Of a stretch of DNA of 64,000 bases, positions 292-43,422 are shown piece by piece; positions within the stretch are counted from its first letter, which is position 1; each line of letters opens with the position of its first letter. The stretch comes from Escherichia coli (GTDB taxonomy: Bacteria; Pseudomonadota; Gammaproteobacteria; Enterobacterales; Enterobacteriaceae): assembly GCF_030013595.1 (NCBI RefSeq), contig NZ_CP122768.1. One strand, given 5' to 3'. The notes below the pieces were generated by a model. The model ran no database searches, was not told where the DNA came from, and was given only the letters and a program-made list of their open reading frames with translations. The translations under genes were made by a program, and so were the position numbers.

Positions 292-318
292 TGGTGGAGC
301 TGGCGGGAGTTGAACCCG
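292..318. repeat. att core, left copy (displaced copy of ssrA 3' end)
   Basis: tggtggagctggcgggagttgaacccg identical to 43396..43422. Confidence 0.8.
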
Positions 319-386
319 TGATCGTGATTAATCCAATTTATTGAATATGAACGATTTATTTTTTCAAACAATGAATTATGTGCATT

Positions 387-1649
387 TTACGTACATATTG
401 TTGTCCCGGTAACGTCCTGATTCTGTACAACATTTTGAAATATTTTGCCGTTACGGGGTTGCAGAAATCGCCGTTTTTCCATCGTATTCTGCAAGGTAAG
501 AGCCGTAATGTCTGAACAGCATTTCCGGTCCTTTATGCCCCATCTGACCAGCAAGCCAGAACAGGTTAACGCCCTGGCTAATGTGCCGAGTGGCGAACGT
601 GTGGCGTGTCTGGTACGGATTGCGATAGCGTACACCAGCTTTTTTAAGGGTTGGTACCCAGGCTTTTTTCGGATCGCATCTGCGTTTGCCCAAGGGGCGC
701 GAGTTTTCGGATCGCTGAATATGAAGTCGCTCTTTAGCGCCGTGTAGGGCTTTTGTGCCTGAAGAGCTGCCAGCGCTTCGCTGTTCAGTTGCACTTTGCG
801 GGTGCCGGCTTTTGTTTTGGTGCTTTTGATTACCCCGACTACGCTTGCAGTCTGAACATGCGCGGTGTTGCCGATAAAGTCTATATCCGTCCAGCGCAAC
901 GCGCACAATTCTGAGCTACGCAGTCCAGTATTAAAGGCAAAGCGAAACAGATTTCGCCATTCCGGGTAATGACAGGCGTCATAGATTGCTGCCGTCTCCG
1001 CTGGTGTAAAGGGATCGACCTCGTAATCACCACTGCTTGGTGTGTTGTCCAATACGTGATACCGGCTGGCGCTGACTAGCGTGACAGGATTTATTGTTAA
1101 CAAACCATCGGTCACCGCTTCATCTATGGCGCTGCGCAGAAACGAAAGATTATTGCGGATCGTTTTCAGTTTTGTTTTTCTGCTGGCGATCCAGTTTTTT
1201 AGTACAGCAGGTGTCAGTTCTGATACATGAAATTTATGCAATGCTGACAGCGCCGACAAGCATTTTTCATAACCTCTAATTGTCGATGGTGACAGGTTAC
1301 GGTTCTGGCAGATAATCAGGTATTCATCCAGATAAGATTTTATATTTTTGTTTTTTTTCACTCCCCCGAACAACTCCAGCTTTTGGGAGTTGGGGAAGTA
1401 TTTTGCATATTCGAAGGTACCATCGATAATCTGATTTTTTATTTCTCCCAGCAGACGCTCGGCGTACTTCACACCGCGCGCGTTTACTTCCATTCTGGAG
1501 AGGGGCTCCCGACACAGAACCCCTTTATATGTAAAAGTGATAACCAGAGTGCTACCAGTTTTATGCTGCCGAATAGTTACTCCTCTAGGGAGAGATAATG
1601 ATCCTTGTTCTTTCTTGCCCATTTTGTAATCTCCATTAAGTCGACCCAA
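387..1649 (-). CDS. Tyrosine integrase (phage integrase family); reading frame broken by a 1-nt frameshift in an A6 run (plus-strand T6 at 664..669)
   Basis: 420-aa ORF with recombinase motifs (..FNTGLRSSELCALRW..) in the N-terminal three quarters; the conserved catalytic C-terminus (YQTRHTFATRH..LAGQMGH..RHYGSY) is encoded in the overlapping 451..906 frame. Confidence 0.8.
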   Translation of the reverse strand: MGRLNGDYKMGKKEQGSLSLPRGVTIRQHKTGSTLVITFTYKGVLCREPLSRMEVNARGVKYAERLLGEIKNQIIDGTFEYAKYFPNSQKLELFGGVKKNKNIKSYLDEYLIICQNRNLSPSTIRGYEKCLSALSALHKFHVSELTPAVLKNWIASRKTKLKTIRNNLSFLRSAIDEAVTDGLLTINPVTLVSASRYHVLDNTPSSGDYEVDPFTPAETAAIYDACHYPEWRNLFRFAFNTGLRSSELCALRWTDIDFIGNTAHVQTASVVGVIKSTKTKAGTRKVQLNSEALAALQAQKPYTALKSDFIFSDPKTRAPWANADAIRKKPGYQPLKKLVYAIAIRTRHATRSPLGTLARALTCSGLLVRWGIKDRKCCSDITALTLQNTMEKRRFLQPRNGKIFQNVVQNQDVTGTTICT

Positions 1650-1786
1650 CGTTCTTTAACTCCGTCGACTTTTAATACATGTACCCCTTCTTTCCATATT
1701 CCTCTTTGTATCCGTTTGTTAACGGCATCAACCGTTTCTCCTGCGTTGCGGCAGTAGGTTGATATAGGTACGCAATCCAGCCCCAC
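1577..1786 (-). CDS. Excisionase-like small DNA-binding protein
   Basis: 69-aa ORF immediately upstream of and overlapping the integrase start; basic, Xis-like size and position. Confidence 0.45.
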   Translation of the reverse strand: MGLDCVPISTYCRNAGETVDAVNKRIQRGIWKEGVHVLKVDGVKERWVDLMEITKWARKNKDHYLSLEE

Positions 1787-1944
1787 AGTTCACCTCACAC
1801 AACATTCAGCCCACGGCAGTGGCACCACACTTCAAACATTCGCCTCACAACTTCACGACAGTAGAAGCCGTCAACGTCTCGCGTCAGGTCATAGCGATTG
1901 CCGTAACGCTGGCGTACCCATAGCTCAAATGCTTTATTCATTCT

Positions 1945-2187
1945 CTATTTCCTTTTCATGGCTCGTAATTTTTTCAGATGAGCTTCCAGCTCTGTTTCTG
2001 CCAGAATTTGTCGGTATTCCTGGTGATCTATCCGTTCAAACGATTCATTAAAATCGCTTATTTTTACAGATTGTGTTCGCCCATCCATTCTTCTGTACAA
2101 CACAGTGTTGTTTATGCAGCGAATAATTTTTATCGGGTAACCGGCACTGTCGGTATACAGTTGCCCTTGATTAATCAAAGCGAACAT
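1945..2187 (-). CDS. Hypothetical phage protein
   Basis: ORF with AGGAG-type ribosome-binding site before the internal Met (MFALINQ..); start chosen to avoid overlap with the upstream gene. Confidence 0.4.
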   Translation of the reverse strand: MFALINQGQLYTDSAGYPIKIIRCINNTVLYRRMDGRTQSVKISDFNESFERIDHQEYRQILAETELEAHLKKLRAMKRK

Positions 2188-2218
2188 TTTTTCTCCTGCT
2201 CTCTGAATAGTGAGAACT

Positions 2219-41900: not shown

Positions 41901-42293
41901 ACGAAAACCACATCGTCGTTTGATTACGGCACTAAATCCACGAATAACACCGGGGCGCATACGCACAGTGTGAGCGGTACAGCCGCAAGTGCCGGAAACC
42001 ATACTCATAGTGTCACAGGCGCATCAGCAGTCAGCCAGTGGTCACAAAATGGGTCAGTACATAAGGTAGTGTCTGCGGCCAGTGTGAATACAAGTGCTGC
42101 AGGAGCACACACTCATAGTGTCAGCGGCACAGCTGCATCTGCAGGTGCTCACGCACATACTGTCGGTATTGGTGCTCATACGCACTCTGTTGCGATTGGC
42201 TCACATGGACACACTATCACCGTTAACGCTGCTGGTAACGCGGAAAACACCGTCAAAAACATCGCATTTAACTACATTGTGAGGCTTGCATAA
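38940..42293 (+). CDS. Side tail fibre protein (Stf-like) with long Ala/Ser-rich repeat region
   Basis: N-terminus [26 protein letters not shown].. (lambda Stf-like); GAHTHS-type repeats near the C-terminus. Confidence 0.85.
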
Positions 42294-42877
42294 TGGCATT
42301 CAGAATGAGTGAACAACCACGGACCATAAAAATTTATAATCTGCTGGCCGGAACTAATGAATTTATTGGTGAAGGTGATGCATATATTCCGCCTCATACA
42401 GGTCTGCCAGCAAACAGTACCGATATTGCACCGCCAGATATTCCGGCTGACTTTGTGGCTGTTTTCAACAGTGATGAGGCATCGTGGCATCTCGTTGAAG
42501 ACCATCGGGGTAAAACAGTTTATGACGTGGCATCAGGGGACGCGTTATTTATTTCTGAACTCGGTCCGTTACCGGAAAATGTTACCTGGTTATCGCCGGA
42601 AGGGGAATATCAGAAGTGGAACGGCACAGCCTGGGTGAAAGATGCAGAAGCAGAAAAACTATTCCGGATCCGGGAAGCGGAAGAAACAAAAAACAGCTTG
42701 ATGCAGGTAGCCAGTGAGCATATAGCGCCGCTTCAGGATGCTGTAGATCTGGAGATCGCAACGGAGGAAGAAAACTCGTTGCTGGAAGCCTGGAAGAAGT
42801 ATCGGGTGTTGCTGAACCGTGTTGATACATCAACTGCACCTGATATTGAGTGGCCGGAAGAACCAGACACAATGTAA
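42293..42877 (+). CDS. Tail fibre assembly protein (Tfa)
   Basis: 194 aa immediately after stf with overlapping start. Confidence 0.8.
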
Positions 42878-43243
42878 GCGAAAAAGAAAAACCGCAGACA
42901 CGACGTATGCAGGACGTGCTGCGGTTGGCTGGTGAACTTTCGATAGTGCGAGTATTGAATGATTTCCAGCCGTTATTGATTTTATATAACTGTAGTGGAG
43001 TTATTCAACACACAGGCAAAACGGAATAATCTGAGAAAAAAGCGTGCTTCGCCAATCAGGGGGGCGAAGCACGTCTGAATGACACCTGAAAATTTCCCGT
43101 CCGTTAAGTGTCCGCCCCGAGAGAAGTGGGGAACCATAACACCCTGTCGGGACGCAGAAAGAAACAACACAACTTGCAGGGATATTTCTCGATACTGCGT
43201 CAATGGTGGGGGATGTTAAATTATTACACTTAGTTACAAATAG

Positions 43244-43279
43244 AAAAGCCTCTGACTTCATAAGCAGAGGCTTTTCTTA
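43244..43279. terminator. Bidirectional hairpin terminator near the prophage right end
   Basis: agcctctg-N10-cagaggct with an A-run before and T-rich tract after. Confidence 0.45.
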
Positions 43280-43395
43280 AATGCGCGTGCATTTTGCGTG
43301 TATATTTTTGTCTTTTTCTGGTCCGCTCACTGTCTGGTCAGTGTCCATAAGTGACTGTTTTTATAGTCTCTGTCTGGTTGTGGTCCTGTCAAAAG

Positions 43396-43422
43396 TGGTG
43401 GAGCTGGCGGGAGTTGAACCCG
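43396..43422. repeat. att core, right copy (within the ssrA 3' end)
   Basis: Identical 27-mer to 292..318. Confidence 0.8.

Follow-up and report, generated by a model that had tools for sequence, protein, structure and literature searches.

The ssrA site and its described occupants

The gene ssrA, which encodes transfer-messenger RNA (tmRNA), is a documented hotspot for integration in Escherichia coli and Salmonella, used by nearly all prophage genera and by other islands (PMC3603311). I consider here one occupant of that site, an element of 43.1 kb lying at 292..43422 of a 64,000-nucleotide stretch of E. coli DNA (contig NZ_CP122768.1 of assembly GCF_030013595.1; the whole stretch is called the window below). 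A preliminary description, made from the sequence alone, had taken the element for a lambdoid prophage with a complete set of phage genes. The account that I find very probable as a whole is that it is a temperate siphophage of mosaic origin, integrated at ssrA in the manner described by Campbell and now probably stranded there. The element is of a known kind, and it leaves current understanding unchanged.

The described occupants of ssrA differ widely in their likeness to this one. In K-12 the same gene is taken by the island CP4-57, between ssrA and ypjA, and in the K-12-type strain 4FA the gene intA comes directly after intact ssrA and the island ends at ypjA; the preliminary description was thus correct that K-12 carries an unrelated occupant of the same site. 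IntA, an integrase of the P4 type, has only marginal similarity to the integrase of the window, over 80 residues of the catalytic domain, and its gene stands beside intact ssrA, whereas that of the window stands at the far end. The displaced repeat of CP4-57 is shorter than that of the window and degenerate, the island has no phage structural genes, and its arm downstream of ssrA is unrelated to the one seen here. That the element might itself be a CP4-57-type island is ruled out by the type and the position of its integrase.

A passage of PMC8065619 lists ssrA as a site of Shiga toxin (Stx) phages by way of the cryptic prophage CP-1639, after Creuzburg et al. 2005. Both CP-1639, a cryptic Stx1 prophage, and the ssrA prophage of O157:H7 are lambdoid, with the same core sequence as the window and a homologous arm of phage DNA beside ssrA (the P arm), but in both a dinI gene adjoins ssrA, and there is a cargo of stx or effectors; the window has neither the one nor the other. 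The same type of integrase as in the window is found in phage LMessi, phage phi467, the PhiR12 series and the Cronobacter phage phiES15. LMessi and its relatives have the same 27-bp ssrA core beside the 3' end of int and a P arm homologous to that of the window, complete with trailer-like hairpins and a terminator. They differ in the rest of the genome, and their sequences come from free or induced phages, not from a damaged prophage.

The anatomy of the two junctions in the window is plain. The 27-mer TGGTGGAGCTGGCGGGAGTTGAACCCG occurs as an exact direct repeat at 292..318 and 43396..43422, as had been claimed, with no third copy in the 64-kb window even when up to 3 mismatches are allowed and no match in any of 100 dinucleotide-preserving shuffles. 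The bases that border the two copies are unlike (T291 versus G43395, T319 versus C43423), so the block of identity is exactly 27 bp. An intact tmRNA gene lies on the minus strand at 43396..43758, where ARAGORN and Rfam agree (292.8 bits, the gathering score being 47) and where the tag reads ANDENYALAA; it follows from this call that the right-hand copy is the 3' end of ssrA, which starts at the 5' side of the T stem and reaches CCA. The copy on the left, likewise on the minus strand, is a fragment of ssrA standing alone. The integrase gene (451..1622, minus strand) lies 133 bp from this displaced copy and far from the intact tmRNA gene, again as previously described.

An empty site is found in E. 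coli strain 405, which matches window 1..318 at 100% and runs from there directly into a complete ssrA, followed by smpB, ratA, yfjF, bamE and recN, the same order of genes that follows ssrA in the window. Deleting the interval in silico (1..318 joined to 43423..46500) yields a contiguous ypjA-ssrA-smpB locus that aligns with strain 405 over 3318 bp at 99.1% identity with 0 gaps, and the flanks thus rejoin as the preliminary description required. Outside the prophage, positions 1..131 hold the 3' end of the ypjA/ehaD autotransporter gene of the host (plus strand, stop codon at 129..131, annotated as ypjA in matching genomes), and 132..291 is contiguous with ssrA, on the minus strand, in the empty-site strains 405 and Dog168. 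The latter has a variant of the trailer of about 150 bp after ssrA although ypjA is absent there. Because the trailer follows ssrA in both strains, the 160 bp that separate ypjA from the left repeat are the native 3' trailer of ssrA, the B arm.

Within that trailer, folding finds the native terminator as a stem-loop at 142..165 with a U-run at 141..145 (−21 kcal/mol, z = −4.6). The hairpin lies 10 nt past the stop codon of ypjA and can serve both of the convergent genes, ypjA and ssrA, as a bidirectional terminator. The minus-strand hairpin and T-run noticed earlier therefore exist, but the position given for them, about 126..155, was too far to the left by some 10 nt. Of the two origins proposed for the left 290 bp, an ancestral ssrA terminator is the one that stands; the end of another element is ruled out, since the DNA is native trailer common to empty-site genomes.

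Known as it is for islands in tandem, ssrA invites the supposition that two or more elements are present, or that the left 290 bp closes another element inserted in ssrA, all the more since the phage arm beside ssrA is similar to the left 160 bp. The supposition is scarcely credible. In strain 405 the sequence immediately beyond ssrA matches the left 291 bp at 100%, and Dog168, which is without ypjA there, has a variant of the left flank after ssrA. As for the resemblance, it is accounted for by the phage arm, a diverged copy of the trailer. The phage genes run in one continuous order, and neither a degenerate third copy of the core nor a second integrase was found within 319..43395; with only two copies of the core and one integrase, a tandem or composite element is ruled out.

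The single integrated phage is best seen by comparison with LMessi (PP925823), which matches 292..1780 and 43221..43422 of the window on one strand, the two matches overlapping by exactly the 27-bp core. In LMessi that core lies at 1501..1527 of the locus (L007) and joins the two ends of the prophage as P-O-P'. The four arrangements are then B-O-B' at attB in strain 405, B-O-P' at the left junction of the window (the integrase-proximal one, attL in the lambda convention), P-O-B' at its right, ssrA-bearing junction, and P-O-P' at attP in LMessi. Between LMessi and the window, identity is 88% for the integrase, that of the window being taken in its intact form, and about 80% for the DNA of the att/int module. 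An intact relative of the integrase has the Pfam domains Arm-DNA-bind_2 and Phage_integrase. As for arm-type integrase sites, the attP reconstructed from the window offers only two weak 9-mer repeats, CTGTCTGGT at 43330 and 43370 and GTGCATTTT at 43287 and 380.

Everything by which Campbell integration into a tRNA or tmRNA gene can be recognized from sequence is present, namely the repeat, the empty site, int together with xis, and attP in a relative, and I regard it as nearly certain that the element is a textbook case of such integration at ssrA by a tyrosine integrase.

Lesions in the integrase and helicase loader genes

The integrase gene is a pseudogene through the loss of one base. A run of six A's at 664..669 in the window corresponds to a run of seven in strain rl0044 (T6 versus T7 as read on the plus strand), whose DNA is 99.86% identical to the window over 9.9 kb. 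The reading frame is lost after "...ADAIRKK", and the out-of-frame reading runs to 387. Lost with it are about 70 C-terminal residues, including RHTFATRH (the HxxR motif) and RHYGSY (with the catalytic Tyr); the catalytic domain of the intact integrase occupies residues 206-373 (Pfam). The same 1-bp deletion is present in ETEC4085, where PGAP flags the gene as frameshifted, and ETEC1734 is 100% identical to the window at the lesion, while in the alignments of most other relatives the integrase has one base more. Being common to the window, ETEC4085 and ETEC1734, the deletion appears to be a mutation of the lineage rather than a one-off error. The adjacent excisionase gene (1577..1786, minus strand) matches phrog_2917 with E = 1.5e-40.

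The second lesion is an insertion sequence (IS). The gene for a DnaC-like helicase loader (9836..12027, plus strand) is interrupted after codon 28 by an IS629-like element of the IS3 family (9922..11231, minus strand), 1310 bp long and 96.3% identical over its full length to an annotated IS629. Its features are terminal inverted repeats, orfA and orfB, an ALIL frameshift pseudoknot and a transpos_IS3 match, and a target duplication of 3 bp, GAA, flanks it. Removing the element and one GAA in silico restores a loader of 292 residues, identical to the protein of ETEC4085, whose prophage has no IS629-like copy.

Strain rl0044 has an IS629-like copy in the gene for the DnaB-like helicase instead (11259..12568 of its locus, L003), 98.7% identical to the copy in the window, and the two insertions are independent events in the same type of prophage. 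A related Stx2a phage, Stx2_499, also has an IS629 in this region, there in a regulatory gene. The three copies represent independent strikes on the early-right operon.

If both lesions are taken at face value, an integrase truncated before its catalytic residues and a split loader would leave the prophage stranded, probably unable to excise or to replicate on its own. I infer on these grounds a loss of mobility, and consider a defective state of this kind likely, though less firmly established than the integration itself. The products of the repressor and of the morons should still be made; the repressor, the morons and the late genes are intact. The earlier claim of a complete phage gene set accordingly needs to be divided: all the categories of genes are present, but with the integrase frameshifted and the loader split by an IS, the set is not functionally complete.

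One might hold instead that the prophage is fully functional and inducible. Every gene for structure, lysis, immunity and Q is an intact open reading frame (ORF) with a strong match to its family, and the defect of the integrase amounts to one base of a homopolymer, which could be an error of assembly or could revert. I think this improbable, given that the IS629-like insertion cuts the loader after only 28 codons and that the frameshift is shared with two other strains, in one of which the annotation flags it. Nor is a second integrase likely to complement the defect, because the type is found at a median of 1 place per carrier genome, 2 at the highest (it is present in 130 of 5,426 complete E. 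coli genomes).

Several points nonetheless weigh against the picture of a Campbell-integrated and now stranded phage. The attP that completes it is that of LMessi, a relative at about 80% DNA identity, rather than that of this exact phage. The integrase lesion lies in a homopolymer, where an error of sequencing or assembly is possible. Other prophages could provide integrase or loader function in trans, and the DnaC of the host might substitute for the split loader.

The ssrA trailer and the arm brought by the phage

The P arm of the prophage (42878..43395, minus strand) ends, at 43236..43395 on the same strand, in a diverged copy of the native ssrA trailer, with a hairpin at 43242..43277 and a U-run at about 43238..43247. 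The two were compared as window 132..291 and window 43236..43395, together with 1321..1500 of the LMessi locus. Phage arm and native trailer are 52% identical, with a global alignment score at z = 5.3 that none of 2000 shuffles reaches, and the LMessi arm stands at z = 7.6 against the native trailer. The U-run comes about 147 nt after CCA in the native trailer and about 149 nt after it in the phage arm, and folded as single sequences both form the same three hairpins. The rules of a terminator scanner for stem, loop and tail missed both of the terminators beside ssrA, and both were confirmed by folding.

From these observations a sequence of events may be proposed. The attP of the phage would carry the 27-bp core of ssrA, from the T-arm to CCA, with the genes for an arm-binding tyrosine integrase and an excisionase on one side and, on the other, a copy of the ssrA 3' trailer of about 160 bp, diverged and ending in a terminator. 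Integration would rebuild a complete ssrA that runs into the trailer and terminator of the phage, and would displace the native 27-bp end, trailer and terminator by 43 kb, to a place next to ypjA. The phage thus appears to supply ssrA with a replacement 3' end, trailer and terminator, and ssrA transcripts are expected to end at the phage terminator.

Why the arm should resemble the trailer is another matter. Shared ancestry followed by modest divergence is the simpler explanation, simpler than a function at the level of RNA. The alternative is that selection has maintained, over and above common descent, an RNA element required for the maturation of pre-tmRNA. In its favor, a hairpin about 55-80 nt after CCA keeps the loop ACCAGA across native trailers and phage arms while its stem changes in a compensatory way, from CACCG/CGGUG in native trailers to CACUG/CAGUG in the arms of the window and LMessi and CUCUG/CAGAG in those of PhiR12 and 98E11. 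This hairpin is followed by a palindromic hairpin and then by the terminator, and these two keep their positions in native trailer and phage arm even though their sequences are unlike. On the other side, 107 distinct sequences come after the ssrA 3' end in IMG/VR viral contigs, and 78 of them lack the ACCAGA hairpin; the arm of CP4-57 is unrelated, yet the hosts keep ssrA in both cases. The stem variants number only about three, and RNAalifold finds no consensus pairs among native and phage trailers, at least in an automatic MAFFT alignment, where the hairpins fall out of register. Selection of this sort is therefore improbable.

Slighter still are the chances of a more specific idea, that the ssrA trailer holds an undescribed signal for the processing or stability of pre-tmRNA and that phages of this integrase family must reproduce it in their attP arm, so that the prophage supplies a working mimic of it. 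Were it true, the need for such a signal would explain why the arm has kept the length of the native trailer and, through compensatory changes, its structure.

Gene content of a mosaic prophage

The order of genes was taken from the PGAP annotation of near-identical prophages and from PHROG, NCBIfam and Pfam searches of the ORFs in the window. Two described systems may be set beside it. The first, and the nearest to the early half, is phiP27, an Stx2e phage (NC_003356), 93.9% identical to the window over 55% of positions 292..22000, a match that takes in the early-left region, immunity, the replication genes (O-, DnaC- and DnaB-like), Q, the methylase, the tRNA slot, lysis and the HNH gene. 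The differences are considerable. Where phiP27 has stx2e, the slot after the tRNAs in the window appears to be non-coding; where phiP27 has a gene for a GIY-YIG nuclease, the window has an OmpC-like porin. The tail of phiP27 is contractile and Mu-like, that of the window non-contractile and lambda-like. The integrase of phiP27 is 29% identical to that of the window, and it integrates at yecE rather than at ssrA. The absence of stx2e, the type of tail and the site of integration rule out that the element is phiP27 itself.

The second is lambda together with HK97, which share with the window the order of int-xis, then cI-cro-O, then Q, lysis, terminase, head and tail. The window has a head of the HK97 type, the lambda-type tail genes H, M, L, K, I, J, lom, stf and tfa and, as in lambda, iterons that would lie inside the initiator gene; its late half is 92-96% identical to phages of the HK97 and mEp types over long stretches. 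Unlike lambda and HK97, it has its own attachment site and integrase specificity, an early region of the phiP27 type and a DnaC/DnaB-type replication module. The element may thus be described as phiP27-like immunity, replication and Q regions without stx, combined with an HK97-type head, a lambda-type tail and the morons for porin and Lom. Lambdoid phages are classically defined by productive recombination with lambda. As a correction to the preliminary description, likeness to lambda and HK97 is confined to the late half of this prophage, the early half being like phiP27, and lambdoid mosaic is a fair name for the whole.

Reading from the left, the integrase and excisionase genes are followed by early-left accessory genes (DUF4222, DUF5406 and an SPFH lipoprotein), a CII-like regulator and a CI-type repressor of the LexA/S24 family (5703..6395, minus strand), with a Cro-like gene divergent from it at about 6515..6757. 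PADLOC found no defence system among the early accessory genes beyond the methyltransferase and generic helix-turn-helix matches. PHROGs identify a Rha/Ant antirepressor and ash module at 7171..8696, within which Rfam finds an isrK-like RNA (RF01394) and a C4 antisense RNA (RF01695) in tandem on the plus strand (8091..8279), between the Rha/Ant and ash-family genes and overlapping the start of the ORF at 8034..8696. The arrangement is that of the antisense control of the antirepressor in P1 and P7, set within a lambdoid immunity region.

The O-like replication initiator (8914..9825, plus strand, phrog_270) contains two internal arrays of tandem repeats at 9264..9422, with units of 15 bp and 24 bp, likely the iterons of the origin. 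Beyond the split loader come the DnaB-like replicative helicase (12024..13415, plus strand, phrog_19) and a Q-like late antiterminator (13669..14052, plus strand, phrog_79, E = 4.9e-52). The moron for the OmpC-family porin (14242..15339; NF007841, 531.9 bits where the cutoff is 484) separates Q from the late genes and lies on the opposite, minus strand; after it comes a DNA methyltransferase (16136..17182, plus strand). A tRNA-Gly(UCC) gene at 17443..17517 (plus strand) has beside it, at 17364..17436, a sequence to which the Rfam tRNA model gives 45.9 bits and which is called neither by ARAGORN nor, in relatives, by PGAP; it is probably a degenerate tRNA.

No stx gene is present in the slot that follows the tRNAs and precedes the holin (17518..18200), where the only ORF has 132 codons (17635..18033). 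As a candidate toxin or moron this ORF was rejected, for it has no PHROG match, contains a terminator-like hairpin at about 17880..17905 and is labelled hypothetical by PGAP in relatives; it is probably non-coding.

The lysis cassette consists of two holins and an M15 endolysin (18203..19306, plus strand; phrog_198, phrog_217, phrog_465). The segment from endolysin to HNH, 19302..20160, has no counterpart in the rl0044 and ETEC4085 prophages, which are otherwise 99% identical, and is a local mosaic replacement; a small lipoprotein-like ORF within it (19670..19903) may encode a spanin. Packaging and head genes, all on the plus strand, occupy 20168..26204 (HNH, TerS, TerL, portal, HK97-type prohead protease and major capsid protein), and the connectors and tail genes occupy 26204..42877. 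The latter encode a V-like major tail protein, G/T chaperones, the tape measure H, then M, L, K, I and J, and after J the proteins Lom, side tail fibre and Tfa. At 42636..42834, inside the 3' part of the Tfa gene, Rfam gives a full-length match (213.9 bits) to its family IS009, a candidate small RNA.

In CP-1639, in the O157:H7 prophage and in PhiR12, the tail fibre genes are separated from the ssrA-proximal arm by a dinI-like gene. The doubtful ORF found at the corresponding place beside ssrA (43001..43261, 86 codons) matches nothing in PHROG at E ≤ 1e-10 and translates into a sequence unlike a protein, which rules it out as dinI. The rest of the window holds ordinary core genes, from smpB through recN and onward, and a Phe leader (the pheA attenuator) at 61629..61754, with nothing unusual among them.

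Prophages that cover at least 80% of the early half are present in 7 complete genomes of the collection, among them porcine, bovine and pond-water isolates, and the right junction is present in 8 genomes. The value of the analysis lies mainly in correct annotation: 43 kb of this chromosome is a phage-derived and probably immobile island, one that carries an additional OmpC-family porin, an outer-membrane protein of the Lom/Ail type, a DNA methyltransferase and a tRNA-Gly. Useful additions to the earlier description are the two lesions, the recognition of the left flank as the native trailer and terminator of ssrA, and the likeness of the early region to phiP27. The IS629-like copies in separate replication genes of the window and rl0044 offer a small illustration of how prophages may become fixed. 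Beyond this, the locus is one more example of ssrA as a common landing site for unrelated elements, and an example of how the attP of a phage would replace the 3' end, trailer and terminator of a gene, so that the expression of tmRNA survives the integration.

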